Below are positions 12,345-44,039 of a stretch of 64,000 nucleotides of DNA, in pieces. Source of the stretch: a bacterium (lineage in GTDB: Bacteria; JAHJDO01). The stretch is taken from assembly GCA_030652805.1 (NCBI GenBank), contig JAUSPT010000024.1:37050-101049 (forward strand). Direction: 5' to 3'. Position 1 is the first letter of the stretch, and each line of letters begins with the position of its first letter. A program made the translations under genes and the position numbers. A model generated the notes under the pieces. The model saw nothing but the letters and a program-made list of their open reading frames with translations, had not been told where the DNA came from and ran no database searches.

Positions 12345-12423
12345 GATATTACAAATTAAGGCAATATAATTTGAGAAATATAGTTATGTTAAAGATACAC
12401 TCTCTCAAAAAGGAGTATTAACT

Positions 12424-21455: not shown

Positions 21456-21472
21456 AGTAATAGGAGAGATCT

Positions 21473-22159: not shown

Positions 22160-23229
22160 TTATGAGTAAAGAGTTTAGCAGAGCTCTGTTTGAGTACAAT
22201 CCTATTGAAACCGTAGTCGTGGATTTGGAAGGAAGAATAATCGACTTTAATCTGGCAAAAAAGAACTCAGGGGATAGATTGCCCAATATTGGGGATGGGA
22301 TGTACAAGGATTATGCAGCTCATCATGAGATTGACATGTATGCTGAATTGATAAAATGTATCAGAACAAGTAAGGTAAAAAAGTTTCCTGAGAAAAAATA
22401 TAAAAAGAGGTTTCTATCCATAACAATAGCTCCCTTTCCCAAAGGGGCAATTATAACATCTCTAGATGTCACCGAGCACAAGAAAGAGACAGAAATAGAG
22501 AGGAAAAGAGCTACAGAGGCGAAAAAGGATTATGAACAACTACAAGCCAATAAGGACGATTTGATTCGCTCCGAGAAACTTGCCTTTACCGGCCGCATAG
22601 CCGCAAATATTGCTCATGAGATAAGAAATCCCCTGACCAATGTAGCTATGGCAGTCCAGCAGCTTGGGAAAACCATTAAACAGGAAGGACACATTGCTAA
22701 ACATATGGACATCATTAAAAGAAACACAGAAAGGATTAACTATTTAATTACTGAACTCCTAAATTGTGCCCGCCCGCCAAAACTTAATATACAGCCATGT
22801 AATATTCATAAGGTATTAGAAGATATTTTAGAGTCCAACAAGACTAAGATTAGTTCAAAAAATATAAAGATAATTAAAAGGTTTACCTCTGACACATTCA
22901 TAATAAAGATTGATAAAGAACAAATGCAGCGTGCCTTCTTAAACATAGTCATCAATGCTATTGAAGCTATGCCCAAGAGAGGCAAATTGACCATTATTAC
23001 AGAGTTTAAGGGAAATCTTTTTGAGGTGAAGGTTCAAGATACAGGTAAAGGCATTCCTGAAGAAGATATTATCAGGATATTTGACCCTTTCTTTAGTTCC
23101 AAGTCCGGGGGTGTAGGCTTAGGATTGACTATATGTTATGGGATTATTGTGAGCCATGGCGGTACTATAGAGGTAGAAAGCAAGCCGAAAGAAGGGTCTA
23201 TCTTTATGGTATCTTTGCCAATTGGGTAA
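22156..23229 (+). CDS. sensor histidine kinase (PAS-like - HisKA - HATPase_c), cytoplasmic
   Basis: H-box IAHEIRNPLTNV, N-box, G-boxes DTGKGI/GVGLGL; start overlaps upstream stop (ATGA). Confidence 0.8.
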   Translation: MIMSKEFSRALFEYNPIETVVVDLEGRIIDFNLAKKNSGDRLPNIGDGMYKDYAAHHEIDMYAELIKCIRTSKVKKFPEKKYKKRFLSITIAPFPKGAIITSLDVTEHKKETEIERKRATEAKKDYEQLQANKDDLIRSEKLAFTGRIAANIAHEIRNPLTNVAMAVQQLGKTIKQEGHIAKHMDIIKRNTERINYLITELLNCARPPKLNIQPCNIHKVLEDILESNKTKISSKNIKIIKRFTSDTFIIKIDKEQMQRAFLNIVINAIEAMPKRGKLTIITEFKGNLFEVKVQDTGKGIPEEDIIRIFDPFFSSKSGGVGLGLTICYGIIVSHGGTIEVESKPKEGSIFMVSLPIG

Positions 23230-23326
23230 AGATCAAAAGTTAGAAAAAGTAAAATTTTGAGATAAAAAAGGCACAAAGTGACAAAGGCGCAAAAGATGCT
23301 CGTTTACATAACGGAGAGTGAATATA

Positions 23327-23407
23327 AACTCACCCTGACCCTCTCTTGAGTAGAGAGGGAATGTTCCCCTTCTCTGTCAAGAGAAGGGGCGAGGGGATGA
23401 GTTGAGT
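23327..23407. repeat. composite inverted pair of a short dispersed repeat (second copy at 60721-60753)
   Basis: AAACTCACCCTGACCCTCTCTTGAGTAGAGAGGG ... CCCCTTCTCTGTCAAGAGAAGGGGCGAGGGGATGAGTTGAGTT. Each half is a hairpin (CCCTCTC..GAGAGGG) plus GGGTGAGTT tail, matching 60721-60753 in both orientations. Confidence 0.55.
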
Positions 23408-23439
23408 TCACTAAATATTTACGACGACGGAGTGTAATA

Positions 23440-24048
23440 GTGGAAATAAAATATGATATTAGAAGAGGCGCAGATATATATCGGGCAATTTATGGAGCTC
23501 GATTACAGAAATGGATTCTTGCAGGTAAGATAAAGCGAGGAGAAGTAATTGTCTGGCGAAGCGGTCTTTCAGGCTGGCGCAAAGCCGAAGAACTTGAAGA
23601 ACTGGCGCCATTTTTTGAACAGTGGGAAAAAGAACAATTAAGAGAAACAAAGAGGCAAAAAGAGCAAGTCTTCTTAAGGAAGAAACAGAAGAAGATAAAG
23701 AATATTTTGATAATAGACGATGAGAAGGATTTGTGTTCGCTCCTGTCTGACGCCTTAATCCAGAGAAACTACAATGTATCGATTGCAAACACAAAAAGAG
23801 AAGCTATGGCTTATCTTAAAAAGAAATCACCTGATTTAGTTCTGTTAGACCTAAAACTACCTGATGGCGATGGAATAAAAATCCTTCCTAGGATCAAAAG
23901 GGTAAATCCAGAGACAGTAGTGATTGTAATTTCTGCCTATGGAAGCGAAGAAAGCAGACAAATGGCAAAAAAGGGAGGAGCTTTTACCTTTATAAACAAG
24001 CCGTTTACTGAAGAAGATATATTAAGGAGTATAAAAGTACTCTCATAA
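23440..24048 (+). CDS. response regulator: N-terminal DUF4339/GYF-like domain, K/E-rich linker, receiver domain
   Basis: GWRKAEELEELAPFF (DUF4339-like), then ILIIDDEKD...LLDLKLPDGDG receiver. Confidence 0.65.
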   Translation: MEIKYDIRRGADIYRAIYGARLQKWILAGKIKRGEVIVWRSGLSGWRKAEELEELAPFFEQWEKEQLRETKRQKEQVFLRKKQKKIKNILIIDDEKDLCSLLSDALIQRNYNVSIANTKREAMAYLKKKSPDLVLLDLKLPDGDGIKILPRIKRVNPETVVIVISAYGSEESRQMAKKGGAFTFINKPFTEEDILRSIKVLS

Positions 24049-24059
24049 CAGAGGGCAGC

Positions 24060-25439
24060 ATGGAGACGATTCTAATAGTAGATGATGAGAAGGACTTGCG
24101 TTTTAATCTTTCCAACATTTTGAAGGACGAAGGTTACAACGCAATCGCTGTGGGAGACGGAAGGAAAGCGCTTAATGCAGTTAAGAAAAATTCTCCCAAT
24201 TTGGTCCTGCTGGATATGAAGCTTCCTGAAATGGATGGGATGCAGATTCTAGAGAAGATGAAGCTGATTGATAAGGATTTGATTATTATAATGCTTACTG
24301 CTTATGGAAATCTAAATGGAGCGGTAAAAGCAATGAAATTAGGGGCATTTGACTATCTTGCCAAGCCTTTTGATAATGAAGAATTAATTCTTGTAATAAA
24401 AAGGGCTCTTCGGACCCAATATTTAGCCAAGGAAGTAGAAACTCTAAAAAAACGGGTTGGTGAAAAAATTACAGCAGAAGAGCTAATGGGAGAAAGCCCT
24501 CAAATAAAGCAAGTCTTAAAACAGATTAAGATAATTGCTCCGACCAATATGACTGTAATACTTCAAGGTGAAAGCGGAACAGGCAAGGAATTGATTGCTC
24601 AGATGATCCATCAGGAAAGTCCGCGAAAAAATGACCCTTTTATTGCTATAGACTGTGGCGCAATTCCCGATACATTGGCTGAGAGTGAACTCTTTGGTCA
24701 TGAGAAAGGCGCCTTTACAGGAGCTGATGCTCAAAAAGAAGGCAGGTTTGAAGAGGCTAATGGAGGAACTCTGTTTCTGGATGAGATTACAAATCTCTCT
24801 TCTACTACGCAGAGAAAACTTCTCAGAGTGATACAGGAAAGAAGGCTTCAGCATATAGGCGGCAAGAGAAGTATAAAAGTTGACGTCAGAATAATCGTGG
24901 CTACGAACATTAATCTCTCAGGCGCGGTAAGGCGGGGTAAATTTAGAGAGGACCTCTTCCATAGGTTAAATGAATTTCATATTTCACTTCCCCCGCTTCG
25001 GGAAAGAAAAGATGACATCCCCCATTTAGCCATGCGTTTTTTGGGGGGAGGAAATCAGGAATTAAATAAAAAAATAGAAGGGTTTTCTTCTGATGTAATG
25101 AAATTGCTTCTGGATTATCCCTGGCCGGGCAATGTTAGAGAATTAAAGAATGTAGTCAGAAAAGCAGTGCTTCTGTGCGATTCCAATCATATCAAACCGG
25201 AACACTTTCCATTAGATAATATTGCTTCCACTAAAAAGCTTGAATTTCAGCAGGATTTGGATAAAGGAGTCTCCCTCAAAGAGATAACTAAAAAAGCGAC
25301 AGGACAGATAGAAAAGGAAGCTATTGAGCAAGCACTGGCAAAAGCCGGCGGCAATAAAAGTAAAACCGCCAAAATCCTCAAAATAGACCGCATGACCCTC
25401 TATTCTAAGATGAAGGAATATCAGATACGTAGACTGTAA
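24060..25439 (+). CDS. sigma54-dependent transcriptional activator, NtrC family (receiver - AAA+ - Fis-type HTH). Candidate gas-vesicle regulator, GvrA-like
   Basis: Receiver LLDMKLPEMDG; Walker A GESGTGKE; GAFTGA motif; ESELFGHEKGAFTGA; C-terminal HTH KTAKILKIDRMTLYSKMK; immediately upstream of a sigma54 promoter and gvpA. Confidence 0.9.
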   Translation: METILIVDDEKDLRFNLSNILKDEGYNAIAVGDGRKALNAVKKNSPNLVLLDMKLPEMDGMQILEKMKLIDKDLIIIMLTAYGNLNGAVKAMKLGAFDYLAKPFDNEELILVIKRALRTQYLAKEVETLKKRVGEKITAEELMGESPQIKQVLKQIKIIAPTNMTVILQGESGTGKELIAQMIHQESPRKNDPFIAIDCGAIPDTLAESELFGHEKGAFTGADAQKEGRFEEANGGTLFLDEITNLSSTTQRKLLRVIQERRLQHIGGKRSIKVDVRIIVATNINLSGAVRRGKFREDLFHRLNEFHISLPPLRERKDDIPHLAMRFLGGGNQELNKKIEGFSSDVMKLLLDYPWPGNVRELKNVVRKAVLLCDSNHIKPEHFPLDNIASTKKLEFQQDLDKGVSLKEITKKATGQIEKEAIEQALAKAGGNKSKTAKILKIDRMTLYSKMKEYQIRRL

Positions 25440-25830: not shown

Positions 25831-26037
25831 ATGGCAGTAGAAAAAGCAATCGGTTCATCTAGTTTGGTTGAGGTTATTGACAGAATCCTTGACAAGGGTG
25901 TTGTGGTTGATGCATGGGTTAGAATTTCTTTAGTTGGTATTGAATTACTCGCTATTGAAGCAAGAGTCGTAGTCGCATCAGTCGAGACATACCTGAAGTA
26001 TGCTGAAGCAATTGGTCTAACCGCAACAGCAGCTTAA
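25831..26037 (+). CDS. gvpA: gas vesicle structural protein GvpA
   Basis: [60 protein letters not shown]. Near-identical to the canonical GvpA core; AGGTGG RBS before ATG 25831 (ORF track starts at upstream GTG). Confidence 0.95.
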
Positions 26038-26226: not shown

Positions 26227-26925
26227 ATGGGAAGTGCCGAGGAAATGAAGAATTTGGCGCAAGGAATTGTTTCTTCTTATCAGGCCAGAGTTTCTGAAGT
26301 AGCCACGGTCATGGACAATGCTCACCAAATTCTTGAAGATTTTAAGCTCAAAAGAAGTGAGATGAGCAGTCAACTTAGAGAAACCCTTGCCAATGGAGAG
26401 TCTCTCAGAAAAAAGGATTTTGATAATATGATGAAAGGCATCCTTTCCCATCAAGAAGAAAGAGAAAAAGAGGTAAAAGATTTATTAAAGACTTTTTTTG
26501 AAGAACAAAAAGAAATAGCTGAAGCCATTAGGAAGAATTTGGCCGAAGGCGAAAGCGTGAGAATAAGTGATTTTAAAAAGATGCTCCAGGATATTCAGGC
26601 AAGGCAGAAACTCAGGGAAAATGAAGTAAGAACGACCCTAAAGGAATTTCAGGAAGGACATAGGGAGATGGCTGAGTCTTTGCACAGCCTTTTAAATAAA
26701 GAAGAGTCCTTACGGATTGAGGACTTTAAAGAGATGCTAAAAGATATTCGTTCAAGACAGATAGAGCGGAAAAAAGAAGTCAGAACCAAACTTGATGAAT
26801 TCAGGAAAGAACATCAAAATATGACTTCCGAATGGAATAAACTAACCGGTCTTATGGCCGAGAAAAGAGCCAGCAAGCTGAGAGGAGGTGAGAGAGAGGA
26901 AAAGTTGGAAGTTGCCAGGGTTTAA
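26227..26925 (+). CDS. tandem-repeat coiled-coil protein, candidate GvpC-like gas vesicle scaffold/strengthening protein
   Basis: Three ~50-aa repeats of pattern L..GES.R..DFK.ML.DI..RQ..RE.EVR..L.EF...H..M; hydrophilic, predicted all-helical; directly downstream of gvpA as gvpC is in cyanobacteria. Confidence 0.5.
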   Translation: MGSAEEMKNLAQGIVSSYQARVSEVATVMDNAHQILEDFKLKRSEMSSQLRETLANGESLRKKDFDNMMKGILSHQEEREKEVKDLLKTFFEEQKEIAEAIRKNLAEGESVRISDFKKMLQDIQARQKLRENEVRTTLKEFQEGHREMAESLHSLLNKEESLRIEDFKEMLKDIRSRQIERKKEVRTKLDEFRKEHQNMTSEWNKLTGLMAEKRASKLRGGEREEKLEVARV

Positions 26926-26995: not shown

Positions 26996-28027
26996 ATGGG
27001 AATAGCAAGTGATATCAAAGCACTGGGTGAGGACATTGTTGCCTCTTATGATACGCGAGTAAGGGCGATAGGTGTGCTTGTCAAGGACGTCGACAAAATG
27101 CTTAAGGGTCTTCATACGGATCATAAGAGTATGGCTGCCAATCTTAAAGCTGGCCTTAACAAGGGAGAAGAAGATAGGCTCAATGCCTTTAAGCCAATGA
27201 TAGCAGAAATTCAGAAGCGGACAAAGGAAATAGAAGTCTATGTTAAAACTCTGCTCAAAAAGTTTCACAGCGAGCATATGGAAATGTCTGCCAATCTTAA
27301 TGCCTCTCTTGCAAAAGGAGAAGAGGATCGACTTAAGGACTTTAGAGCAATGATGGCTGATGTTAAGAAGTTTGTAGCGGATATGGTTGATACGACTGCG
27401 AAACTGATGAAGCAAATTCAGGCTGAACAGAAAGATAGAAATAAAGGAGTAGCTGATCTCCTTGCAAAGTTTGCGCAAGACCATGCATCTATGGCAGATG
27501 AGCTTAGAAAAAGCCTTGCAAAAGGAGAAACAAACAGGCTTGAAGACTTCAAAAAGATGATAGATAGTATCCAAAAATATGTGGCTGATGTAATTAGTGC
27601 GACTAAGCAGCTAATTAGCGAAATTCAAGCAAGGCAGGATGAGAGAAACAAAGAGGTTCTTGCTCTCTTACAGGCATTCCAGGCCGAAAGAGAAAAGATG
27701 GCTGCTAACTGGCAGGCTCTGGCTGCAACAATGGAGAAGAGAAGAGGCGGTAAGCCGATTCCAGTTAAAGTAGAAGCCAGGCAGGAAGTAAAGACTGTTG
27801 AAGAGGCAGTGAAAGAAAAACCCAAAGCTAAACCTAAGGCTGGGCCTAAACCCAAAACACCTGAAGGTCAGATATTAGCTTTGCTTAGGGAGCATGCTGA
27901 AGGCATGAGCTTGCCGAATTTAGGAAATGAAGCAGGCTGCCACTTTATAAAGCTGACCAGTCCAATGAGAGGTCTGCTGGATAAAGGCAAAGTTAGAAAA
28001 GAAGATAATCTTTACTTTATTGCTTAG
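26996..28027 (+). CDS. tandem-repeat coiled-coil protein (paralog of 26227 gene) with K/P-rich linker and C-terminal winged-helix-like domain
   Basis: Repeats ...SLAKGEEDRLKDF.AMM.D..K.V.D...; KPKAKPKAGPKPKTPEG linker; C-terminal ILALLREHAEGMSLPNL... Confidence 0.5.
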   Translation: MGIASDIKALGEDIVASYDTRVRAIGVLVKDVDKMLKGLHTDHKSMAANLKAGLNKGEEDRLNAFKPMIAEIQKRTKEIEVYVKTLLKKFHSEHMEMSANLNASLAKGEEDRLKDFRAMMADVKKFVADMVDTTAKLMKQIQAEQKDRNKGVADLLAKFAQDHASMADELRKSLAKGETNRLEDFKKMIDSIQKYVADVISATKQLISEIQARQDERNKEVLALLQAFQAEREKMAANWQALAATMEKRRGGKPIPVKVEARQEVKTVEEAVKEKPKAKPKAGPKPKTPEGQILALLREHAEGMSLPNLGNEAGCHFIKLTSPMRGLLDKGKVRKEDNLYFIA

Positions 28028-28043: not shown

Positions 28044-28364
28044 ATGAGCGAGATAAAATGTGCTTTCTGCAAAGGCACGGGCAAGGATCCATTTGATCTT
28101 CTATCCGAGCTTGCTGTCTGCCAGGTTTGCGGAGGCAGGGGTAAAGTTGAGGTAAAAGAGCCGGCAATCAAGTGTGTCTTTTGTAGCAGCACCGGTATCT
28201 ATCCTCGTAGTCGAGTTACCTGCACTGTATGTAATGGCAAAGGAATGGTTGCGGTTAAAGGCGCGACTGACGAGTGCCCTAAGTGCAAAGGCACAGGCAG
28301 AGCAATAGATAGCGGACTTCCCTGCATTAAATGTGGAGGCAAAGGGGTCGTTTCAAAAAAATGA
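28044..28364 (+). CDS. DnaJ-type cysteine-rich zinc-finger (CxxCxGxG repeat) protein
   Basis: Six CxxC(x)GxG motifs (CAFCKGTG, CQVCGGRG, CVFCSSTG, CTVCNGKG, CPKCKGTG, CIKCGGKG), as in DnaJ CR domain. Confidence 0.7.
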   Translation: MSEIKCAFCKGTGKDPFDLLSELAVCQVCGGRGKVEVKEPAIKCVFCSSTGIYPRSRVTCTVCNGKGMVAVKGATDECPKCKGTGRAIDSGLPCIKCGGKGVVSKK

Positions 28365-28586: not shown

Positions 28587-29507
28587 ATGGCAGCTGTTGA
28601 GGAGATGACCACAGTACTTGAACCAAGTCCTTTATCAGACTTTGTGGAAACAAAGTATGTGAAGGATGTCACTAATCGGACACTTTCCTATATTAAGGCC
28701 GGTTTTCCGGTCCATTTTCGAGGTCCTTCAGGGACAGGAAAGACCACTCTGGCTATGCATGTAGCCAGTAAGGTTAAAAGGCCGGTGGTAATGATTCACG
28801 GGGATGAAGAGTTTACAACCTCTGATTTGGTGGGTGGTGAACATGGCTACAGGTTTAGAAAGGTTGTAGACAGATTTGTCTCCAGGGTGTTGAAAGTGGA
28901 AGAAGATATGGTAAAGCGCTGGGTGGATAACCGTTTAACGGTTGCCTGTAAGTATGGTTTTACCCTTATCTATGATGAATTCACACGTTCCCGTCCTGAG
29001 GCAAACAATATTCTTCTCTCTATTTTGCAGGAGAAGATGATGGATCTGCCAGTGGGAAGAGGCGGAGAAGAACCGTATTTAAAGGTTGACCCTGATTTTA
29101 CCGCTATTTTCACATCAAACCCTGAGGAATATGCCGGAGTTCATCGGAGTCAGGACGCTCTTAGGGACAGAATGATAACCATGGATTTGGACCATTTTGA
29201 TTATGATACGGAAATAGGTATTACCAGGGCAAAATCCAAACTCTCTAAACAAGATTCTGAGAGGATAGTTAATATTGTAAGAGGATTGAGGGAATCAGGA
29301 AAGTGTGAGTATGCACCAACCGTACGCGGCTGTATTATGATTGCTAAGACGCTTAAAGTTCTGGGCACTGCTCCTGCTAAGAGTAATGGTTCCTTCAGCG
29401 CGATGTGTCAGGACATATTGGCTTCTGAGACCAGTAGAGTTGGCTCAAAGACGAATCAGGACAGGGTAAAGGGGATAGTTAAGGAGTTGGTTAAGAAATA
29501 TAGTTAA
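28587..29507 (+). CDS. gvpN: gas vesicle protein GvpN (AAA+ ATPase)
   Basis: Walker A GPSGTGKTTLAMHVA, Walker B LIYDEF; length and position typical of GvpN (CbbQ/NirQ-like AAA+). Confidence 0.88.
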   Translation: MAAVEEMTTVLEPSPLSDFVETKYVKDVTNRTLSYIKAGFPVHFRGPSGTGKTTLAMHVASKVKRPVVMIHGDEEFTTSDLVGGEHGYRFRKVVDRFVSRVLKVEEDMVKRWVDNRLTVACKYGFTLIYDEFTRSRPEANNILLSILQEKMMDLPVGRGGEEPYLKVDPDFTAIFTSNPEEYAGVHRSQDALRDRMITMDLDHFDYDTEIGITRAKSKLSKQDSERIVNIVRGLRESGKCEYAPTVRGCIMIAKTLKVLGTAPAKSNGSFSAMCQDILASETSRVGSKTNQDRVKGIVKELVKKYS

Positions 29508-30127: not shown

Positions 30128-30148
30128 CAACTGCATAGGTGGTTGAGA

Positions 30149-30541
30149 ATGAATTGGAACACATTTGACTTTAAAAGCGGGAAAAGCGGAAGAACCAGGT
30201 CAGGACGAAGGATAGGTGAGATTTTGGAAGGGGATAAGTTTAGATGTTCATTATGCAGAGGCACAGGGATATTACCCCGAACCAAGGGCACAAGATGTCA
30301 TGTATGTAAAGGCTCAGGCATAGTTTCCTTAACCGGACCGGCAGTAGTATGCGCTTACTGCAAAGGCAGAGGCGATTATCCGCCGAGGACAAGTCTTACC
30401 TGTACGGTTTGCGGAGGGAAGGGTTTAGTTAGCATTACCAAACCCATTGAAATATGCGAACATTGCCGGGGAACCGGTGCTGAGCCGGGCAATAAACTAC
30501 CTTGCTTAAAATGCAAAGGTAAGGGTGTGATTACAAAATAG
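30149..30541 (+). CDS. DnaJ-type cysteine-rich zinc-finger protein (paralog 2)
   Basis: CSLCRGTG, CHVCKGSG, CAYCKGRG, CTVCGGKG, CEHCRGTG, CLKCKGKG; AGGTGG RBS, ATG at 30149. Confidence 0.7.
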   Translation: MNWNTFDFKSGKSGRTRSGRRIGEILEGDKFRCSLCRGTGILPRTKGTRCHVCKGSGIVSLTGPAVVCAYCKGRGDYPPRTSLTCTVCGGKGLVSITKPIEICEHCRGTGAEPGNKLPCLKCKGKGVITK

Positions 30542-31132: not shown

Positions 31133-31441
31133 ATGACCAGTATGGAGCGTGAGACTTTAGATGTTATTGCTGAAAATGAGGAGAGAGTCCATTATTACTT
31201 AATAGCTCAGGAATTAAAGGTAAGCGCTCATTATGCCTATGTGATTTGCAAAGGGCTTGAGAGAGACAAATATGTTGATTTTGATACATTTAAAGGAGTA
31301 TGCAGCTTAACAGAAAAAGGTAAAGAAACAGTGGAAGAGAATTGGCTTTTTAAACTTAAGCAGCAAAAGCAGAATATTCAGAAGAGAAGAAAAGAAAATA
31401 AGGGAAAAATTTCTAAGAATGTTGAGGTTGTAAATTATTAA
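31133..31441 (+). CDS. small winged-helix DNA-binding protein (MarR/ArsR-like)
   Basis: LDVIAENEERVHYYLIAQELKVSAHYAYVICKGLERDKYV. HTH + wing pattern; basic C-terminus. Confidence 0.5.
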   Translation: MTSMERETLDVIAENEERVHYYLIAQELKVSAHYAYVICKGLERDKYVDFDTFKGVCSLTEKGKETVEENWLFKLKQQKQNIQKRRKENKGKISKNVEVVNY

Positions 31442-31444
31442 GAC

Positions 31445-31657
31445 GTGAGTATAACAGCTACAGAATTAGAAATACTAAGAATTATAAAAAAGAAAAACGG
31501 TTTAATATCTATGAAAGAGTTAAGCAGTAAAGCAGGGTTTGAGATAGGCTATACCTACATGTTGTGCAAGTCCCTGGAAAAGCAGGATTGTATTGGGTTT
31601 TTTACCCATTCATCTTGTAGAATAACTGCAACAGGCAAAGGTCTGATAAGCGAATAG
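31445..31657 (+). CDS. small winged-helix DNA-binding protein (paralog)
   Basis: ELEILRIIKKKNGLISMKELSSKAGFEIGYTYMLCKSLEKQDCI. Same HTH pattern as the 31133 gene. Confidence 0.5.
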   Translation: MSITATELEILRIIKKKNGLISMKELSSKAGFEIGYTYMLCKSLEKQDCIGFFTHSSCRITATGKGLISE

Positions 31658-31666
31658 GAGGTCGAA

Positions 31667-32053
31667 ATGAGCTGGCAAACAATGGAGTGGAATAAACAAA
31701 AGATCGGGCGCAGAGGAGAGATTTTAACCAGGGATGTCTACAGATGCGGTTTTTGTAGAGGCACAGGTCTCCTTTCTTCTAAAAAGGGGATAAAATGTCC
31801 TGTTTGTTTAGGTAATGGAGAGGCAAAGGTTTCATCTCCGGCTGTAATTTGCGCTTATTGCAATGGAACGGGAAAAAGACATCCTCGAACTACCCTCACC
31901 TGTACTGTTTGCCGAGGAAAGGGTGTTGTGAGCGTGGGAACTTCTGATATTGAAGCTTGTCCTACTTGCAAAGGAATAGGCAGGGAACGCGGCAGGACTC
32001 TTCCCTGTTTAACCTGCAAAGGGACAGGCGTTATTCCTAAAAAGAAGAGATAA
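31667..32053 (+). CDS. DnaJ-type cysteine-rich zinc-finger protein (paralog 3)
   Basis: CGFCRGTG, CPVCLGNG, CAYCNGTG, CTVCRGKG, CPTCKGIG, CLTCKGTG. Confidence 0.7.
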   Translation: MSWQTMEWNKQKIGRRGEILTRDVYRCGFCRGTGLLSSKKGIKCPVCLGNGEAKVSSPAVICAYCNGTGKRHPRTTLTCTVCRGKGVVSVGTSDIEACPTCKGIGRERGRTLPCLTCKGTGVIPKKKR

Positions 32054-32085
32054 TATTTTAGTATTAAATGTACAGGGAGAAAAAA

Positions 32086-32604
32086 ATGGCTAAAGAAAAG
32101 AAAAAAAATGAAGAAGCGGTAGGTTTTGATTTTGGCATTGGTGGGCTGTTTAAAGGTATTGAGAAATTAGTTGACCTGGCAGCAGATTTAAAAGAGGCCG
32201 GAGGGGAGATTAAGAAAGAAGGCGAAATAGACCTGAGCCATCTTAAGAAAGGGATGAAGGGAGTATTTGGATTTTCTGTAAAAAGCGCGGTGGGAGGAAA
32301 ACCAACAGTTGAGACATTCGGCCACAAAATTAAGAAGACCCCTGAAGGTCCCACGGTTGAAGAAGAGAGAGAGCCTATCATAGATGTATTTGATGAAAAA
32401 GAAGAGATCCGAGTCTATGCTGAGATGCCGGGGGTAAATGACGAGTCTATATCGGTTGATTTAAAAGGGGATATATTAGAAATAACAGCTGTAAGTAAGG
32501 ATAGAAAATACCGCAAGGAAATTTTGCTTCCTGCTAAAGTTGAATCTAAAACTTTAGAGAGGAGTTTTAAAAACGGTATCTTAGAAATAAAAATAAAGAA
32601 ATGA
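32086..32604 (+). CDS. gvpH: Hsp20/alpha-crystallin-domain protein, GvpH-like
   Basis: C-terminal ACD: IDVFDEKEEIRVYAEMPGVNDESISVDLKGDILEITAV...ERSFKNGILEIKIKK; RBS AGGGAG before ATG 32086 (ORF track starts at 32068). Confidence 0.75.
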   Translation: MAKEKKKNEEAVGFDFGIGGLFKGIEKLVDLAADLKEAGGEIKKEGEIDLSHLKKGMKGVFGFSVKSAVGGKPTVETFGHKIKKTPEGPTVEEEREPIIDVFDEKEEIRVYAEMPGVNDESISVDLKGDILEITAVSKDRKYRKEILLPAKVESKTLERSFKNGILEIKIKK

Positions 32605-32607
32605 TAT

Positions 32608-33543
32608 ATGGCATTAACAGGATTAAGAGAAGATGCGTTAAAACTGGTTTTATTTGGAGGGAAGGGCGGCGTAGGAAAGACAACCTGTGCATCAAGCACA
32701 GGCTTTTATTTAGCAAAGAATTTCAGGACATTGCTTTTTTCAACAGACCCGGCACATTCGCTCTCTGATAGTTTAGAGCAGGACATTGGCAGTAACATAA
32801 TAGAGGTGAAAGGGACAAAAAACTTGAGTGCTTTTGAAGTAAGCGCAGAAAAAGCTCTTTCTAGATTCAAGATAGAACATGAAGACCAGATAAAAAAGAT
32901 TTTGGATACCTCTACCTATTTAGATGAGGAAGACATTGATTCCATCTTTGATTTGCCTATTCCCGGGATGGATGAAGTGATGGGGTTCAAGACAATTGTT
33001 GATTTAATAGAGGAAGCTAAGTTTGACAAGTACATTGTAGATACCGCGCCTAGCGGTCATGCGATGAGACTTCTGACTTTACCTGACCTGCTGGATGACT
33101 GGGTCAAGGTTATGGCAAAGATGAGATGGAAGTATAGATATATGGTGGAAAGATTTGGCGGAAGATATAATCCTGACGAAGGCGATGATTTCTTATTAAC
33201 TATGAAAAAGACCGTAAAGAGAATAGAAAATCTTCTTAAGGATCAAAAAAGGTGTGAATTTATAGCAGTTACCATTCCGGAAGATATGGCAATTTTAGAA
33301 ACCGGGAGAATGATAAATAATTTGAACGACTATGGCATAAAAGTGAGGCAATTAGTAATAAATAATGTTGTAGAATCGCAGGATTGCGGATTTTGTAGAG
33401 AAAGAAGAAAAGGGCAGGAGAAACATATAAACAGGATAATGAAAAAGTTTGATGACTTAAAAATAACAATTGTCCCTTTGCAATCAAGGGAGGTTAAAGG
33501 TATAGATACCTTGAATAATTTTAAAGAGATGCTATTTCAATAA
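32608..33543 (+). CDS. ArsA/Get3-family P-loop ATPase (single ATPase domain)
   Basis: Deviant Walker [11 protein letters not shown]; ArsA/Get3 signature [12 protein letters not shown] (cf. DTAPTGHTLRLL); [11 protein letters not shown]. Confidence 0.75.
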
Positions 33544-35711
33544 TGGGAAAAAAGAACTCAGCTCTTACACTTAAAGTAAAAGAAGCTCTGCCAAAGGATG
33601 CAGGAAGGGCTATCGCCAGGATTGACCCGGAAGATATGAAAACTCTTGGAATAGAAGTGGGCGAGGTTGTAGAGATTGACGGTAAAAGAAAAACTCCTGT
33701 CAAAGCAATGCCATCTTACGTAGAAGATAGAGGGAAAAAGACTATTCAAATGGATGGAATATCCAGAGAGAATGCGCAGATTGGACTGGATGAAAAGGTA
33801 AAGATCAGCAAGATTGACTATAAGTCTGCTAACAAAATCACACTCTCGCCTCTAACTGCATCAAGTCTGCTTCAAAGAGATAAAGATACCAGATATATCG
33901 GGTCGCTTATGGAGGGGCTTCCTGTAACCAGCGGCGATAGGATTAGAGCTACGCTTTTTGGCTCAAGATCCTGCGATTTTAAGGTGCTGGATACTATTCC
34001 TGCGGGTGTAGTTTTAATAAACCAGACTACTTCAATAAAGATGAAGACAAAGGGAGCAGAAAAAGAGAGGTCAGCCAAAGTTTCATATGAAGATATTGGC
34101 GGGCTTGATAAGCCAATCCAAAGAATCAGGGAGATGATAGAGCTTCCTTTAAAATATCCTCAAGTATTTGAAAGATTAGGAATTGATCCGCCGAAAGGCG
34201 TTTTTCTCCATGGTCCTCCGGGTTGTGGAAAAACCTTAATCGCTCGGGCCGTGGCTAATGAAACAGATGCTTATTTTACCAGCATAAGCGGACCGGAAAT
34301 TATGGGGAAGTTTTATGGGGAGAGCGAAGCTCGCCTCCGTTCCATATTTGAAGATGCTCAGGCACATGCGCCTGCTATCATATTTTTGGATGAGATTGAA
34401 TCTATTGCTCCAAAAAGAGAAGATATGGGCGCTGAAAAACAGGTTGAGCGAAGAGTAGTAGCTCAGCTTCTGGCTCTGATGGATGGATTAGAATCAAGGG
34501 GACATGTTGTTGTTATAGCTGCAACCAATTTGCCTAATACAGTTGATCCGGCTTTGAGACGGCCAGGCCGTTTTGACAGAGAATTATCTATCCCTATTCC
34601 GGATAAAAATGGGCGATTAGAAATTTTACAGATACATACAAGAGGAATGCCTTTGGCAGAAGATGTGAGTTTAGAGAGATTAGCTGAGATTACTCATGGA
34701 TTTGTGGGCGCGGATTTAGAATCATTAGCAAGAGAAGCAGCAATGTCAGCGTTAAGAAAGATTTTGCCTAAGATAGATTTTGAATTAGCGGAGATACCTT
34801 ATGAGACTCTTTTAGAATTGCAGGTTACTATGGACAATTTTTTGGAGGCATTGAAAGAAATAGAGCCTTCTGCTATCCGCGAGGTATTTGTTGAGATTCC
34901 TGATGTCCGGTGGGATGAGGTTGGTGGATTAGATGAAATAAAGAAGTCTTTAATTGAAGCCGTGGAATGGCCTCTTAAATACAGCAGATTATTTGAGCAC
35001 GTCAAAACAGAGCCGCCTACAGGCATTTTGCTCTCCGGTTCTCCGGGTACGGGAAAGACTTTGGTAGCCAAAGCATTAGCTACTGAGAGCGGGGTTAATT
35101 TTATTTCTGTTAAAGGCCCTGAGATTATAAGTAAGTATGTGGGTGAGTCAGAACGCGCTGTCCGTGAGATATTTAAAAAGGCAAGAATGGCTGCTCCATG
35201 TATTTTATTCCTGGATGAAATAGACAGTCTGGTTCCTACACGCGGAAGCGCTGGAGGGGATTCACAGGTAACCGAGAGAGTGATCAGCCAATTTCTTACC
35301 GAACTTGGAGGGATAGAGAGATTAAAGGGCGTAGTAGTGATTGGTGCGACCAATAGATTAGATATGATAGACACCGCAGTATCAAGGGCGGGAAGGTTTG
35401 ATATCCATTTAAACTTTCCATTACCTGATAAAAAGACAAGACTCAGAATTTTTGAAATTCATGCTAAAGACAAACCATTAGATAAAGATGTAAATTTAGA
35501 AAAATTAGCAGATCAAATAGAAGAATATTCCGGAGCAGATATTGAAGCTGTTTGCCGTCGCGCGTCTATGCTTGCTATAAGAGGATATATAGAAAATCAA
35601 AAGGCAAAAAGCAAAGATCAAAAATTAGAACTCAAGATATCAAAGAGCAATTTTGAAGAAGCTATTAGTTTACTAAAAGAACAGAAGAACGAAATAAAGG
35701 GGGGTGGTTAA
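33543..35711 (+). CDS. CDC48/VCP-like AAA+ ATPase (N-domain + D1 + D2)
   Basis: CDC48-N-like start; two AAA modules with Walker A GPPGCGKT and GSPGTGKT, Walker [20 protein letters not shown] regions; archaeal/eukaryotic-type architecture. Confidence 0.85.
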
Positions 35712-35712
35712 A

Positions 35713-35847
35713 ATGGCAGGGATTATTGAGAAAATTAAAAACTTTTTTAGCAGCATGTGTATATGCAAAGTTAAGAAGGAAAAAGAAGAACCTAAACTGC
35801 AACAGGAAGAGCCTAAGGTAGAGGAAAAACCTGAAGAACAAAAATAA
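35713..35847 (+). CDS. small protein with K/E/P-rich tail (44 aa; not in ORF track)
   Basis: MAGIIEKIKNFFSSMCICKVKKEKEEPKLQQEEPKVEEKPEEQK; tail resembles that of the 14209 gene product; AAGG..GGTGG RBS. Confidence 0.3.
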   Translation: MAGIIEKIKNFFSSMCICKVKKEKEEPKLQQEEPKVEEKPEEQK

Positions 35848-35862
35848 TAAACAAGGTGTAAA

Positions 35863-36867
35863 ATGGCTGAAATTGGAAAATATATTTATGGAATTATAAG
35901 TTCTAATACGAACTTCCGCCTTTTTATCTCGGAGGATAGCATACATGCGATTCCTTATCAGGATATCTCGGCTGTAGTAGGAGACTCTGAGATAATCGAT
36001 TACACCTGTATATCTAAAGGTGATGTGGCGAAAATGCTGGTCAGGCATCAAAAGGTTATTGAAGGCGTTATGAGTTCAGGGCTTACAATTATTCCTATGA
36101 AATTAGGTACATTCGCTGTTTCGGAAATTGAGGTCAAAGATATTTTGGATAGAGGATATAACCTCATTAAGGAGATTATGGAGAAGACGGGCGATAAAAT
36201 AGAGATTGATATAGTCGCCACATGGAGTGATTTTCCTTCAATTCTTAAAGAGGTTGGGGAAGAGAGAGAAATTAAAGAATTCAAAGAAAGGCTTTTAGCT
36301 AGTCCAAAAGAGATAACCATAACTGAGCAAATGAAAGTAGGGCTTATGGTTAAGAAAGCATTGGATACAAGAAAAGAAAAATATGCTGAAAAGATAAAGA
36401 ATGCACTGGAAACTCTAAGCCAGGATCTAAAGTTGCATGAACTCATGGACGATAATATGGTTGCTAATATAGCCTTTTTGATAAATAAAACCCGGCAAAT
36501 AGAATTTGATAAAAAGATAGAAGACCTAAACACTGAATTTCACGATGAGTTAAATTTTAGATGTATAGGTCCGCTTCCGCCTTATAGTTTCTATACGCTT
36601 GAGATAAAAAAGATGAAATTTGACGAGATTGATTGGGCAAAAAAGAAGTTGAGGTTAAATGATTTTGCAGGTAAAGATGAAATTAAGAAAGCTTATCGAA
36701 GAGTAGCCGCCTCTTCCCATCCTGATAGAAATCCGGATATACCGGCTAAAATTTTTGATGATGTAAACAAAGCTAATAAGATACTTATTGATTATTGCAA
36801 AGCTCGTGAACAAGCAGGCGAGGAAGAATTTGAAAAGAACGCAATATTGATCAAAGTGAGGGAGTAA
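35863..36867 (+). CDS. GvpF/GvpL-family protein fused to C-terminal DnaJ J-domain
   Basis: N-terminal YIYGIISS...AIPYQDISAVV (GvpF/L hallmark); C-terminal KKAYRRVAASSHPDRNPD...ANKIL J-domain with HPD tripeptide at nt 36718-36726. Confidence 0.8.
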   Translation: MAEIGKYIYGIISSNTNFRLFISEDSIHAIPYQDISAVVGDSEIIDYTCISKGDVAKMLVRHQKVIEGVMSSGLTIIPMKLGTFAVSEIEVKDILDRGYNLIKEIMEKTGDKIEIDIVATWSDFPSILKEVGEEREIKEFKERLLASPKEITITEQMKVGLMVKKALDTRKEKYAEKIKNALETLSQDLKLHELMDDNMVANIAFLINKTRQIEFDKKIEDLNTEFHDELNFRCIGPLPPYSFYTLEIKKMKFDEIDWAKKKLRLNDFAGKDEIKKAYRRVAASSHPDRNPDIPAKIFDDVNKANKILIDYCKAREQAGEEEFEKNAILIKVRE

Positions 36868-40038: not shown

Positions 40039-40605
40039 ATGGATGAAGAAAAAAAGCGAAATCCTGAGAAGCAAAGAGATAAAAAGAAAGAACCTGGTAG
40101 AGAAAAGGAAGAGGGTATAGCAGGAGAAACTCTTAAAGGGATTGGTAAGATGATTCCAGGATTGGGTGGATTGTTCAGGGGTCTGAGAAAATCTCCAGTA
40201 TTCAAAGAAAGATTAAAAAAGATTGATGAAGAAGTAGAGCGCAAGTTGAAGGAAGCTCCCTTAGAAAAGACAGAAAAAGGAAAATTTAAGATAGAGGGAA
40301 AGTTTGAAGCAAGGCATTTAGCTCCAGATAAACCATTTATGAGAAAGGAAGTTTCTCCTCCAATGCCACAGGAAAGGTCAGCAGATATTTTTGACGAGGA
40401 AGATCATATTAAAATAATAGCTGAAATCCCCGGCGTAGATGCAAATGATATAAATCTTAATTTGCAAGGGAATAAACTTACTATATCTGTAGATACCCTT
40501 GACCGTAAATATCATCAGGAATTGAAACTACCCTGCGAACCTAAAGGGGAATTGCAGAAGTCTTATAAGAATGGGATCTTAGAAGTAAAGATAAAAAAGG
40601 AATAA
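40039..40605 (+). CDS. Hsp20/alpha-crystallin-domain protein, GvpH-like (paralog 2)
   Basis: ADIFDEEDHIKIIAEIPGVDANDINLNLQGNKLTISV...QKSYKNGILEVKIKKE. Confidence 0.75.
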   Translation: MDEEKKRNPEKQRDKKKEPGREKEEGIAGETLKGIGKMIPGLGGLFRGLRKSPVFKERLKKIDEEVERKLKEAPLEKTEKGKFKIEGKFEARHLAPDKPFMRKEVSPPMPQERSADIFDEEDHIKIIAEIPGVDANDINLNLQGNKLTISVDTLDRKYHQELKLPCEPKGELQKSYKNGILEVKIKKE

Positions 40606-41727: not shown

Positions 41728-42834
41728 ATGGAACCGACCCGCAATGTTCAGGCAACTTTGGTTGATTTATTGGATAGGATACTGGATAAGGGGCTGGTAA
41801 TCAACGCCGATATTATCATCTCTGTGGCTGGTATTCCTTTAATCGGCGTTAATTTGAGAGCGGCGTTAGCAGGAATGGAGACTATGCTTAAATACGGGGT
41901 GATGCAGTCCTGGGATGAGAAGAGCAGGGCATGGGAGAGGGAACATCAGAAGAAGGCTCTTCCTTCTCTGGTTGAAGGGGAGAAGATCGCCCTGAAAATA
42001 TATGGTTCTTATTATTATAGTAAAGGAATATATAATGCCTGGAAACCAGGCTATTTTTATTTAACTAATAAAAGGCTTATTCTTCACCGTCAGGATTTTG
42101 ATGAAATCACCTTTCAGATACCATTAGAAAAAATAAAAGCATTAATAGTGAAAGAGGAAGAGCATTTTGTTAAAGAAAAGAAAAAACAGGTGCTTTATCT
42201 TATGGATAGACAGGATCAAGCGCATCGGCTTAGCGCAGTAGAGGCAAACCAATTAAAAGAGGCTATTGAACAAAGAATAAAGGATATGGGACTTTGTCTG
42301 GAAGAAAATCCTGTTCTTCCAGAGTTTGTGGATGAGCGAATTGCAGGTTCGCTGATGGAAGAAGAAAAGGTTAGTCATCAAGGGAAGAAAGTGTGGTATT
42401 TAGTGCCGCCTGAAGGAATTCAACAAGAGACCTGGAGACCGGGTCATCTCTATCTTACCAATAAAAGATTATTTTGGTGGTATGATTTTGATAAAAGAAT
42501 AGTTTTTGATGTTTCTGTTGATAAAATAGTTGGCGTTAATGCCGAGATGAGAAAAACAAGCGGTCTTGATAGTAAGAAAGAGAAAATCCTTGATATACTA
42601 TACGGGGTTAATTCAACAAAAAGAACAGCTTCTTTTGCCGGAAAGGAAATAGATGAATGGGCGGAAGCGCTAAACAGGATTGTTCCCGGCAAGATAAATG
42701 AGGAAATCGAAACCTGCCCCCAGTGCGGCAGGCCCGCCCCGGCCAAAGAATTATTAGAAGAGAGTTGCCAGAGCTGTGGCTGGGTCAGCCCTAGATTAAA
42801 AAAGAAGATAGCTCAAGCGGCTTTATCAGCATGA
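41728..42834 (+). CDS. GvpA-family domain fused to two GRAM/PH-like domains and a C-terminal zinc ribbon
   Basis: N-terminus ATLVDLLDRILDKGLVINADIIISVAGIPLIGVNLRAALAGMETMLKYG (GvpA fold); two W(K/R)PG(Y/H)(F/L)YLTNKRL modules (GRAM/bacterial PH signature); CPQCGR...CQSCGW. Confidence 0.7.
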   Translation: MEPTRNVQATLVDLLDRILDKGLVINADIIISVAGIPLIGVNLRAALAGMETMLKYGVMQSWDEKSRAWEREHQKKALPSLVEGEKIALKIYGSYYYSKGIYNAWKPGYFYLTNKRLILHRQDFDEITFQIPLEKIKALIVKEEEHFVKEKKKQVLYLMDRQDQAHRLSAVEANQLKEAIEQRIKDMGLCLEENPVLPEFVDERIAGSLMEEEKVSHQGKKVWYLVPPEGIQQETWRPGHLYLTNKRLFWWYDFDKRIVFDVSVDKIVGVNAEMRKTSGLDSKKEKILDILYGVNSTKRTASFAGKEIDEWAEALNRIVPGKINEEIETCPQCGRPAPAKELLEESCQSCGWVSPRLKKKIAQAALSA

Positions 42835-44039
42835 GAAGTTATTTAGATACTATAAGAAAACCGGTTAATTTACCTTTGCTTCAGGGCGAAGAAGTGCTTA
42901 AGTATTTTACGGCGAGCTACGATGTTGGGAGTTCACTTGCCTCATCCTGGAGACTGGGAAATTTATATCTTACCAATAAGAGACTGCTTTTTGTCCAGGG
43001 AAGAAAGATACTATTTGAGGGCCTGCTCAGCCAAATAAAGACTATAAATATAGTAAAGAGAAGATGGATTTTGGGTAAGAAAGTAAAACAACTAAGTATA
43101 GTATCTGAAGGCAGGAGAGCGCCATATATTGCCATAAAAGACCCTGAAGAATGGAAAAAAGCAATCCTTTCTGATCCACAGTCCCCAGTCCATAACTCGC
43201 AACCTGATGAAGTAATTTTAAAAGGAAGGGGTGGTTATTTAACTCCCGGTCAATCAAAGTGGAGGCTTGGCACTCTTCTCCTTACCAATAAAAAACTCGC
43301 ATTTTCCCAGTTGAGGGGAATTGTATGGGAGACGCCACTCAGCAGTATTAAGGGTTTAAGAATAGAAAAAAGAGTTTACGGGGTCAGTAAAAGTGATGCG
43401 ATATGTGTGGAATATGAATCTTTGGGTGAATTATTAAAAGCATGGATTATATCGCTTAATTTAGAGACTTGGAGAAAAGAGCTATATGAGAGAGTATTAC
43501 TAAAAGTAGATCGGGAGACATTAGATAAAATTGTTACCGAATTGGATCCAGGTTCAAAAGGGATACTCTGGTTTCTTTATGAGAACCGACACGCAAGAAT
43601 CGATATCTTAGCCAAGCTCATAAAGTCTCCTACCCATATGGATGTTTTACTTAAAATAAGGGAGATTATAAACCCAACAGCTGAAAAGCTCATCGGCTAT
43701 CCTATACTCTCATTCGAGAGTTCAAAAGTTGACTGGGAAACTGGCGAGAAAGTTACGTTTAGCTGGTGGCTCGCTGGTCAGCCTTATAGAGAGAAAATGG
43801 AGCCGCTTCTGGACATATTTGATGAGGATGCTGAGCTGGTAGTCTATTTAGAGATGGTAGGTATTAAAGAAGATAAGTTATGCTTAAGTGTGGTGAATAA
43901 CAAACTTATTATTGATGCAGATAAAAATTATCATAAAGAAATTTCTCTTCCCGCAGTGGTTAATACAAATAGTTTTACCAAGAGGTATAAAAATAATATA
44001 TTGGAAGTAAGGTTAAAAAAGGGAAAGTGTAACAGGTGA
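42831..44039 (+). CDS. two GRAM/PH-like domains fused to C-terminal Hsp20/alpha-crystallin domain
   Basis: WRLGNLYLTNKRLLFVQ and WRLGTLLLTNKKLAFSQ modules; C-terminal ACD LLDIFDEDAELVVYLEMVGIKEDKLCLSVVNNKLII...KRYKNNILEVRLKK. Confidence 0.7.
   Translation: MRSYLDTIRKPVNLPLLQGEEVLKYFTASYDVGSSLASSWRLGNLYLTNKRLLFVQGRKILFEGLLSQIKTINIVKRRWILGKKVKQLSIVSEGRRAPYIAIKDPEEWKKAILSDPQSPVHNSQPDEVILKGRGGYLTPGQSKWRLGTLLLTNKKLAFSQLRGIVWETPLSSIKGLRIEKRVYGVSKSDAICVEYESLGELLKAWIISLNLETWRKELYERVLLKVDRETLDKIVTELDPGSKGILWFLYENRHARIDILAKLIKSPTHMDVLLKIREIINPTAEKLIGYPILSFESSKVDWETGEKVTFSWWLAGQPYREKMEPLLDIFDEDAELVVYLEMVGIKEDKLCLSVVNNKLIIDADKNYHKEISLPAVVNTNSFTKRYKNNILEVRLKKGKCNR

Follow-up and report, generated by a model that had tools for sequence, protein, structure and literature searches.

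Three neighbouring genes inside a gas vesicle (gvp) gene cluster, encoding a small heat-shock protein (Hsp20), a Get3/ArsA-like ATPase and a CDC48-type AAA+ ATPase, were analysed in a 64,000 nucleotide (nt) stretch of bacterial DNA (GenBank assembly GCA_030652805.1, contig JAUSPT010000024.1, positions 37,050 to 101,049 of the forward strand). This whole stretch is referred to as the window, and positions are counted from its first letter. The module recurs as a constant part of a widespread type of gvp cluster, and the pairing of its two ATPase genes is not incidental. On balance, if only by a little, we favour the reading that Hsp20, the Get3-like ATPase and CDC48 form an integral, putatively co-transcribed, archaeal-type proteostasis module which serves the aggregation-prone proteins of the GvpA family by the mechanism set out below.

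Organisation of the module

The original prediction concerned two of these genes and held that an ArsA/Get3-like open reading frame (ORF) is coupled to a CDC48-like ORF. Their coordinates, 32608-33543 and 33543-35711 on the + strand, proved exact, as did the overlap of the ArsA-like stop codon with the CDC48 start. The junction reads CAA TAATG GGA, with the TAA at 33541-33543, the ATG at 33543-33545 and one base common to both (a spacing of -1 nt). The module as first delimited was too short, however: the ArsA-like and CDC48 genes belong to it, but so does the Hsp20 gene at 32068-32604, which lay outside the region originally described and whose stop codon is found 3 nt 5′ of the ArsA-like ATG. 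The location of the pair inside a gvp locus is borne out by the gvpA, gvpN, GvpF/L, GvpG, GvpJ/M-like and GvpK genes around it. Chance is excluded for the domain assignments of the ArsA-like and CDC48 proteins, because the domain E-values are 1e-79 and below. Scans for promoters and terminators across 25.2-45.1 kb returned site numbers no higher than those in shuffled sequence. Between 30 and 36 kb no terminator-like site lies between genes, all matches falling within coding sequence, a result which supports solely the absence of an evident internal terminator.

Conservation of the module in gas vesicle clusters

Synteny was surveyed from three independent anchors. For CDC48, one genome per GTDB species was used, giving 40 loci from bacteria, at 63-95% identity, and 40 from archaea, at 46-60%; the ArsA-like protein served as anchor on metagenome contigs, and GvpA was followed through the exact 68 amino acid (aa) protein. 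Genes of the gvp cluster were found in 35/40 bacterial CDC48 loci, 34 of which contained at least three gvp families, and near none of the archaeal CDC48 genes (0/40 loci). A closer look at the five bacterial loci lacking gvp genes shows that four are contigs of ≤4.4 kb and that in the fifth CDC48 lies at the contig end. In their record titles, the bacterial loci are labelled Nitrospinota, Nitrospirota, Omnitrophota, Deltaproteobacteria, Thermodesulfobacteriota, Planctomycetota (including Scalindua and Brocadiaceae), Chlamydiota, Elusimicrobia, Desantisbacteria, WOR-3 and others. Individually checked matches labelled Bacteroidota and Actinomycetota gave the same picture.

In the ArsA-anchored metagenome loci, CDC48 is encoded immediately 3′ of ArsA wherever there is room for it (76/76), Hsp20 lies immediately 5′ of ArsA in 70/73, and gvpA, gvpN, gvpF, gvpG and gvpK are present in every long locus. 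The order Hsp20-(ArsA)-CDC48-GvpF/J-domain was likewise observed at all eight evaluable GvpA-anchored places. It had been asked of the original prediction whether the pair might be common without gvp genes and missing from the gvp loci of relatives, as an incidental insertion would be. The survey instead found close relatives of the pair inside gvp clusters only, and loci with an identical GvpA all carry the module wherever this could be evaluated. The position of the module, between the gvpN and gvpF genes, is constant in well over 100 loci, from metagenome-assembled genomes (MAGs) labelled as at least a dozen phyla.

Within the species loci, Hsp20 is found directly 5′ of the module in 29/40 and a single-domain ArsA directly 5′ of CDC48 in 20/40, the gap between ArsA and CDC48 ranging from -4 to +152 nt. 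The ArsA-CDC48 pairing is common, as had been predicted, but it is not obligatory. In 10/40 species loci Hsp20 is directly 5′ of CDC48 with no ArsA between them, and in 5/40 a two-domain ArsA (607-695 aa, with a CxxC in each half) is encoded elsewhere in the cluster (two-domain variants were seen in loci L013, L024, L026, L031, L056 and L166). Hsp20 is therefore a steadier neighbour of CDC48 than the ArsA-like gene is. Since ArsA is not adjacent to CDC48 in these variant loci, a tight complex of the Get3-like ATPase with CDC48 is not required, and the two appear to share a pathway with no need for an obligate complex.

The ArsA-like protein resembles Get3

The gene at 32608-33543 (+ strand) encodes a single-domain ATPase of the Get3/TRC40/ArsA family with a length of 311 aa (Pfam ArsA_ATPase, E = 4.6e-79, residues 12-310), which passes the cut-off of NCBIfam TIGR00345 GET3_arsA_TRC40 with 264.6 bits against 135. 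Among single-domain proteins of solved structure, it is closest to archaeal Get3, namely 3ug6 (E = 7.9e-58) and 3zq6 (E = 3.6e-55), and it aligns to both over its full length with 34-36% identity. A Foldseek search with an AlphaFold2 model placed 3zq6 and 3ug6 on top, with a TM-score to Get3 structures of ~0.65; the model was used for the fold family alone, and not for details of the groove.

Both ATPase motifs named in the original prediction are present. The deviant Walker A motif, or P-loop, occupies residues 17-26 (32656-32685, + strand), with G17 to T25 invariant in an alignment of 32 sequences (A1), and the switch II stretch begins at residue 145 (DTAPSGH, residues 145-151; 33040-33060, + strand), with D145, T146, A147, P148, G150 and H151 invariant. 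DTAPSGH aligns with the DTAPTGH of Get3 structures, and switch I (DPAHS, D47-S51) is invariant in the same alignment. A further motif was not named in the original prediction, namely CGFC (C260-C263; 33385-33396, + strand), of which C260, F262 and C263 are invariant and which aligns with the CDFC and CEFC of 3ug6 and 3zq6. In Get3 this CxxC binds zinc at the homodimer interface, and judged by the alignment CGFC is a putative zinc-binding motif of the Get3 type. Helices are predicted at residues 80-136 and 158-211, where conservation equals that of the ATPase core and the predicted local distance difference test score (pLDDT) of the model is 55-65. The helical subdomain of Get3 forms its hydrophobic client groove.

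With this in mind, it is scarcely credible that this ATPase drives arsenite efflux as the catalytic part of a pump. All that speaks for such a role is the name of the Pfam family and, in some sources, automatic 'arsenite-transporting ATPase' annotations. Against it, the protein has a single domain, where pump ArsA has two homologous halves and a total of ~580 aa, it reaches 123.5 bits where TIGR04291 (arsenical pump-driving ArsA) has a cut-off of 650, and E. coli ArsA (1f48) aligns to residues 14-163 only, a match limited to the first 150 residues. Moreover, there is no cysteine between C27 and C216, where the cysteines of the metalloid site would fall, and no arsB, acr3, arsR or arsD was identified among the scanned window ORFs. 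An arsenic-resistance identity was rejected on family cut-offs and motifs. By the same sequence features the protein reads as Get3-like and not as an arsenite pump, and the Get3-like leaning of the original prediction was well placed.

A gvp-linked clade of bacterial CDC48

The gene at 33543-35711 (+ strand) encodes a double-ring AAA+ ATPase of the CDC48/VAT type, 722 aa in length. The N-domain and two complete AAA modules previously attributed to it were recovered as Pfam CDC48_N, CDC48_2, two AAA and two AAA_lid_3 domains. The protein passes NCBIfam TIGR01243 (920.9 bits, cut-off 802.65), and its best solved relative is Thermoplasma VAT (5g4f, E = 1.2e-214). In a neighbour-joining tree made with no bootstrap, all bacterial gvp-linked CDC48s form one clade whose sister is a Methanobacteriota MAG. 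Of the origins contemplated in the original prediction (archaeal, actinobacterial ARC or other), this gives a bacterial gvp-linked clade with an archaeal sister. An identity as ARC/Mpa (TIGR03689) was tried and rejected, as the match reached 396.9 bits against a cut-off of 504.75 and was confined to the generic AAA modules.

The D1 AAA module (34110-34922, + strand) has Walker A K230, Walker B D283/E284, the pore loop KFYGESE (F257, Y258) and arginine fingers R340/R343, and the D2 module (34923-35642, + strand) has Walker A K505, Walker B D558/E559, the pore loop KYVGESE (Y532) and arginine fingers R615/R618. The corresponding motifs, GPPGCGKT, DEIES and RPGRFDRE in D1 and GSPGTGKT, DEIDS and RAGRFDIH in D2, are conserved in 36 bacterial sequences, and mean identity in D1 is 84% across the bacterial clade. 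The pore loops of both rings are aromatic, resemble those of VAT and are kept across the clade. The residues of the gvp-linked CDC48 thus follow the pattern seen in active threading unfoldases, VAT among them, and the earlier proposal that it is an unfoldase is supported by its predicted pore loops.

Two features set the clade apart from archaeal CDC48. One is the C-terminus. The HbYX motif, by which many archaeal CDC48 members (not the family as a whole) dock on the 20S proteasome, has a likeness in many of 30 archaeal CDC48s, which end in MYR, IYR, LYA or YFG. An HbYX-like ending was found in 0/35 CDC48s of the bacterial clade, and the window protein ends in NEIKGGG; this absence argues against delivery to the 20S proteasome. 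The other is the N-domain (residues 9-173; 33567-34061, + strand; Pfam CDC48_N, E = 1.2e-25, residues 9-92, and CDC48_2, E = 4.9e-12, residues 116-173), which has the double-psi barrel and beta-clam parts typical of the family. Here identity is 57-63% inside the bacterial clade and 23-39% to archaeal CDC48, the Nc half being the most diverged (23%). An N-domain that is kept within the clade but diverged from archaea fits a partner or client specific to the clade.

Hsp20 and other chaperone-type neighbours

The first gene of the module (32068-32604, + strand) encodes an alpha-crystallin-type small heat-shock protein of 178 aa (Pfam HSP20, E = 1.3e-07). Further Pfam matches are to ArsA_HSP20, the 'HSP20-like domain found in ArsA' (E = 6.8e-05, 22.8 bits with a cut-off of 22.5), and to GvpH (E = 5.7e-04). 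Against NCBIfam NF041800 'archaeal Hsp20' the protein reaches 3.7e-39 and 133.9 bits, just under the cut-off of 140, over profile positions 7-149 of 162. The Hsp20s of gvp clusters (those of the window, L002, L009, L015, L056 and others) have a strongly conserved N-terminal extension, DFGIG..GGLFKGIEKLVDLA..LKEAGGEIKKEGEIDL, which the Hsp20 of Pyrobaculum lacks and which might serve in docking. The DFGIG..GGLFKG stretch, written as a strict regular expression, matched 23/101 Hsp20s, many having a short insertion. The possibility that the N-terminus contains an SHP box like those of p97 adaptors (FxGxGxxL) was considered and dropped, as the conserved DFGIG..GGLFKG lies outside that consensus.

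Directly 5′ of Hsp20 is a gene for a DnaJ-type CXXCXGXG zinc-finger protein (31667-32053, + strand; Pfam DnaJ_CXXCXGXG, E = 4.7e-12), and Pfam identified two more such proteins at 28044-28364 and 30143-30541 (+ strand). All three consist of CXXCXGXG repeats and have no J-domain; they are probably holdase-like. A zinc-finger gene is found at the same place 5′ of Hsp20 in the related clusters L002-L004. On the other side of the module, a GvpF/L gene (35863-36867, + strand) has a C-terminal J-domain with an intact HPD motif (Pfam GvpL_GvpF, E = 8.3e-50; DnaJ, E = 3.2e-10), and a J-domain with HPD lies ≤3.5 kb 3′ of CDC48 in 53/62 bacterial loci. J-domains are elements that recruit Hsp70/DnaK, and the sequence of this one implies that GvpF may bring host DnaK/Hsp70 to the gas vesicle assembly machinery. 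Between the two genes, 2 nt 3′ of the CDC48 stop, is an ORF of 44 aa (35713-35847, + strand) with an amphipathic N-terminus (MAGIIEKIKNFF...) and a tail rich in Lys, Glu and Pro. It was called as a gene in L001, and similar small ORFs follow CDC48 in L003, L007, L016, L018, L019, L022, L025 and L030; in L175 a 48-aa ORF, compared by position alone, takes its place. The product may be a conserved small partner protein.

Proposed function

GvpA, GvpJ and GvpM give inclusion bodies when unchaperoned, and GvpF binds monomeric GvpA (PMC9501494). In E. coli, aggregation of GvpA2 leads to proteotoxic stress, which is relieved by pre-expressed assembly factors (PMC12848028). In the mechanism that we propose for the module, Hsp20 and the DnaJ-type zinc-finger proteins, as holdases that need no ATP, would hold the very hydrophobic GvpA, GvpJ and GvpM. 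A zinc-bridged dimer of the Get3-like ATPase would hold them too, its helical subdomain shielding hydrophobic segments under the control of ATP. The CDC48 hexamer would thread GvpA-family chains through its aromatic pore loops and so free them from complexes with small heat-shock proteins, from aggregates and from mis-assembled or collapsed shells. Chains freed in this way would be captured again, and GvpF with its J-domain, together with host DnaK, would hand them to the assembly machinery of GvpF/L, GvpG, GvpK and GvpN. As CDC48 has no proteasome-docking tail, the chains would be refolded or reused and not degraded. The clients of the module, its physical contacts and the direction of flow, towards assembly or towards recycling, are what we infer from its gene content and motifs.

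Several observations weigh against this reading. Halobacterium, Anabaena, B. megaterium and Serratia form gas vesicles with no CDC48, so that the module is not generally required. The hydrophobic core of GvpA is a beta-hairpin, unlike the transmembrane helix that Get3 usually binds, and the AlphaFold2 model of the Get3-like ATPase is of low confidence (pLDDT 66.7). All loci in the survey were found by similarity to the window proteins, and its view is of the near clade, with distant bacterial CDC48s lying outside it. To the five species loci whose two-domain ArsA is encoded away from CDC48 can be added about eight CDC48-bearing loci in which ArsA is missing from the retrieved flanks (≤10 kb on each side). 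Finally, a 2022 review of Gvp proteins leaves Hsp20, ArsA and CDC48 unmentioned, and the sole 'unfoldase' in it is ClpX (PMC9501494).

The same genomic evidence would also be expected if the module dismantled vesicles, with CDC48 acting as a p97-like segregase that pulls GvpA from collapsed or surplus vesicles and with the Get3-like ATPase and Hsp20 catching the subunits for reuse. We hold this to be possible, if unlikely. The missing HbYX-like ending would favour release over degradation, the N-domain is specific to the clade, and eukaryotes provide precedents: mislocalised tail-anchored proteins are extracted by the AAA+ protein Msp1/ATAD1 and then re-captured by Get3, and p97 extracts proteins from assemblies. 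However, the present data do not separate extraction from a shell from the resolving of off-pathway aggregates, the order of the genes (holdases, CDC48, GvpF/L) and the J-domain of GvpF fit biogenesis equally, and no shell-recognising adaptor was identified. Just as doubtful is the joint proposition that the wall is dismantled with ATP, that the Get3-like ATPase and Hsp20 recapture its subunits for the GvpF/L-GvpN line, and that the whole arose from an archaeal heat-shock cassette which spread with the gvp island. Were dismantling to prove true, shell protein would be recycled, buoyancy would be actively reversible, and Get3 would be a targeting chaperone for a protein-gas interface instead of a lipid membrane.

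Three further explanations are less probable than these. CDC48 might unfold a regulator or a limiting assembly factor, in a control resembling that of haloarchaea, where the activator GvpE is degraded when GvpD is present (PMC9501494). This precedent, a winged-helix pair just upstream of the module (31133-31657) and the sigma-54 two-component regulators flanking the cluster make a regulatory unfoldase conceivable, yet we consider it improbable: the winged-helix pair was not seen conserved (L002-L004 have no HTH Pfam match there), CDC48 has neither an encoded protease partner nor an HbYX-like ending, and the constant neighbours of CDC48 are holdases and a J-domain, not regulators. It is slightly more improbable that the Get3-like ATPase delivers a tail-anchored protein encoded nearby, with CDC48 clearing mis-targeted copies and the link to gas vesicles an indirect one. 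The nearest relatives of the ATPase are bona fide tail-anchor targeting factors, its CxxC is conserved, and NCBIfam has a bacterial 'Get3/ArsA fold putative tail anchor-mediating ATPase' family, though the match to it is partial and far under the cut-off. Get3 works elsewhere with a membrane receptor (Get1/2, WRB/CAML) and tail-anchored clients, but neither a Get1/2-like receptor nor an obvious tail-anchored protein is apparent among the cluster ORFs, for which no systematic or receptor-homologue search was made, and the module occurs only alongside gvp genes in the sample. Lastly, a general heat-shock cassette of archaeal type might have landed in a mobile gvp island by chance and be carried along with no role specific to gas vesicles, as the archaeal affinities of all three genes, a cluster common to several phyla, the identity contrast with elongation factor EF-G described below and the integrase beside some clusters could suggest. 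This is the least probable of the three and is largely refuted by the synteny data. The module keeps one internal position and is retained where the ArsA gene has been rearranged, among the sampled bacteria no copy turned up outside a gvp locus, and the very high conservation (84% in D1) indicates selection in a gvp context.

Comparison with known systems

Castillo and Saier (2010) described ArsA homologues encoded with hsp20 and gvpN, F, L, G, J, K and M, with no ars genes near, and proposed that the ArsA homologue energises a step in gas vesicle biogenesis (PMC2963123). The window protein is like their gvp ArsA proteins (clusters 4 and 6) in lying in a gvp cluster with hsp20. Theirs are internally duplicated and ~600-640 aa long, however, whereas the window protein has one domain, 311 aa and one CxxC. 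The window protein is also coupled to CDC48, which is not mentioned in their paper (PMC2963123). In open-access text, no paper was found on bacterial CDC48, or on Get3 by name, in connection with gas vesicles. The Scalindua rubra genome paper reports just '11 gas vesicle synthesis proteins' and leaves the module unmentioned, and that genome carries the module according to the CDC48-anchored survey. The gvp-linked pair of the original prediction is thus new in part: the association of ArsA and Hsp20 with gvp genes has been known since 2010, and CDC48 in a gvp cluster is, as far as we found, new.

The Get3-like ATPase has the P-loop, switch I, switch II and CxxC of archaeal Get3/TRC40 (M. jannaschii 3ug6 and M. 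thermautotrophicus 3zq6), but it is bacterial, it is encoded in an operon for proteins of an organelle, and its presumed clients are the small hydrophobic proteins of the gas vesicle shell. Likewise, CDC48 has the N-domain-D1-D2 architecture of Thermoplasma VAT (5g4f) and aromatic pore loops in both rings, and differs from VAT and archaeal CDC48 in having no HbYX-like ending, in its diverged N-domain and in being bacterial and, within the sample, confined to gvp clusters. GvpN is also an ATPase encoded in gvp clusters, where vesicle growth depends on it (PMC9501494), but of the single-ring MoxR/AAA_5 type with no N-domain and no second ring, so that CDC48 is an addition to it and no replacement. 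By analogy, the module may be likened to the disaggregation triad of IbpAB, DnaK/DnaJ and ClpB, which also combines a small heat-shock protein holdase with an Hsp70-recruiting J-domain and a double-ring AAA+ machine that threads its substrates. In the window, however, the AAA+ protein is CDC48, the J-domain is on GvpF, and one set of clients is encoded alongside where the triad deals with a whole proteome.

An Hsp20 gene adjoins a CDC48 gene in archaea too. The HSP20 gene of Pyrococcus furiosus lies next to that of VAT1, a CDC48 homologue; both are regulated by Phr and belong to the genes that heat induces most strongly (PMC10746257). In two Pyrobaculum loci (L046 and L049) Hsp20 (~12383-12730) lies immediately 3′ of CDC48. 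The pair in the window differs from that of P. furiosus in lying in a gvp operon, in usually having the Get3-like gene between its members and in the N-terminal extension of its Hsp20.

The helpers known so far from model systems are of the GvpN and GvpF/L types only. The module adds testable candidates for keeping GvpA soluble, for its delivery and insertion into the growing wall, and for the fate of collapsed vesicles. In the sampled data, a bona fide clade of bacterial CDC48 is confined to one cellular structure, and a relative of Get3 occurs with no apparent membrane role. When gas vesicles are used as acoustic reporters in E. coli, expression is limited by GvpA proteotoxicity (PMC12848028), against which a dedicated chaperone/unfoldase cassette could be tried; it could also be tried as a switch for vesicle turnover.

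Origin and mobility

The CDC48, ArsA and GvpN of the host share 75-89% identity with proteins from other phyla, whereas its EF-G (14627-16696) has ≤58% identity outside three close relatives. Moreover, a phage-type integrase lies beside four related clusters (L167, L168, L172 and L173). From these identities the gvp cluster has evidently moved horizontally, and the contrast between cluster genes and EF-G, together with the adjoining integrases, suggests a horizontally mobile island. The score of Hsp20 near the cut-off of the archaeal model and the adjacency of HSP20 and VAT in archaea make the module look like an archaeal heat-shock pair which, with a Get3-type chaperone, was recruited into a gvp operon.

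Host and cluster setting

The window is bacterial chromosomal DNA, encoding FabF, formate-tetrahydrofolate ligase, EF-G, PtsI, AhcY and Lnt, as well as a ribosome hibernation factor-like ORF and four tRNAs. The host lineage is unclassified: the three close relatives of EF-G have 92-100% identity, and the next matches, at 58%, are spread over many phyla. The gvp cluster extends from ~25.8 to 44 kb (~18 kb), with every gene on the + strand. It comprises gvpA, two repeat-rich helical proteins, the three DnaJ-type zinc-finger proteins, gvpN, GvpO-like and GvpJ/M-like genes, two small winged-helix proteins, the three genes of the module, GvpG, GvpK and five GvpF/L genes, of which the first has the J-domain fusion, in addition to further Hsp20-like and GvpA-domain fusion proteins.

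The presumed client of the module, the major shell protein GvpA, is encoded in its 68-aa form at 25831-26037 (+ strand; identified by its translation and by Pfam Gas_vesicle on a recorded identical protein). The identical protein with an ATG start is recorded in 108 blocks of the sequence collection, which has no record of a 71-aa form with a GTG start. The canonical gas vesicle AAA+ ATPase GvpN is encoded at 28587-29507 (+ strand; TIGR02640, 339.5 bits, cut-off 266.8). Right after gvpA is a pair of repeat-rich, predicted helical paralogues (26227-26925 and 26996-28027, + strand) with 31% identity to each other (E = 3e-33) and no significant match in Pfam or NCBIfam, which are candidates for a GvpC-like outer scaffold. 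A search for DNA tandem repeats in the two genes gave nothing useful, their repeats showing at the protein level only.

Towards the 3′ end of the cluster are a second stand-alone Hsp20 (40039-40605, + strand), a fusion protein that joins a GvpA-type domain to two PH/GRAM-like domains and has a zinc ribbon at its C-terminus (41728-42834, + strand), and a PH/GRAM-like protein with an ArsA_HSP20-like domain at its end (42831-44039, + strand). The two small winged-helix proteins, MarR/HTH_24-like by Pfam, are encoded at 31133-31441 and 31445-31657 (+ strand). A histidine kinase, several response regulators and an NtrC-type sigma-54 activator are encoded directly 5′ of gvpA (19758-25439, + strand), an arrangement also present in L002-L004, L166 and L169. 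The position of these regulators suggests that the gvp cluster is under sigma-54-dependent control.

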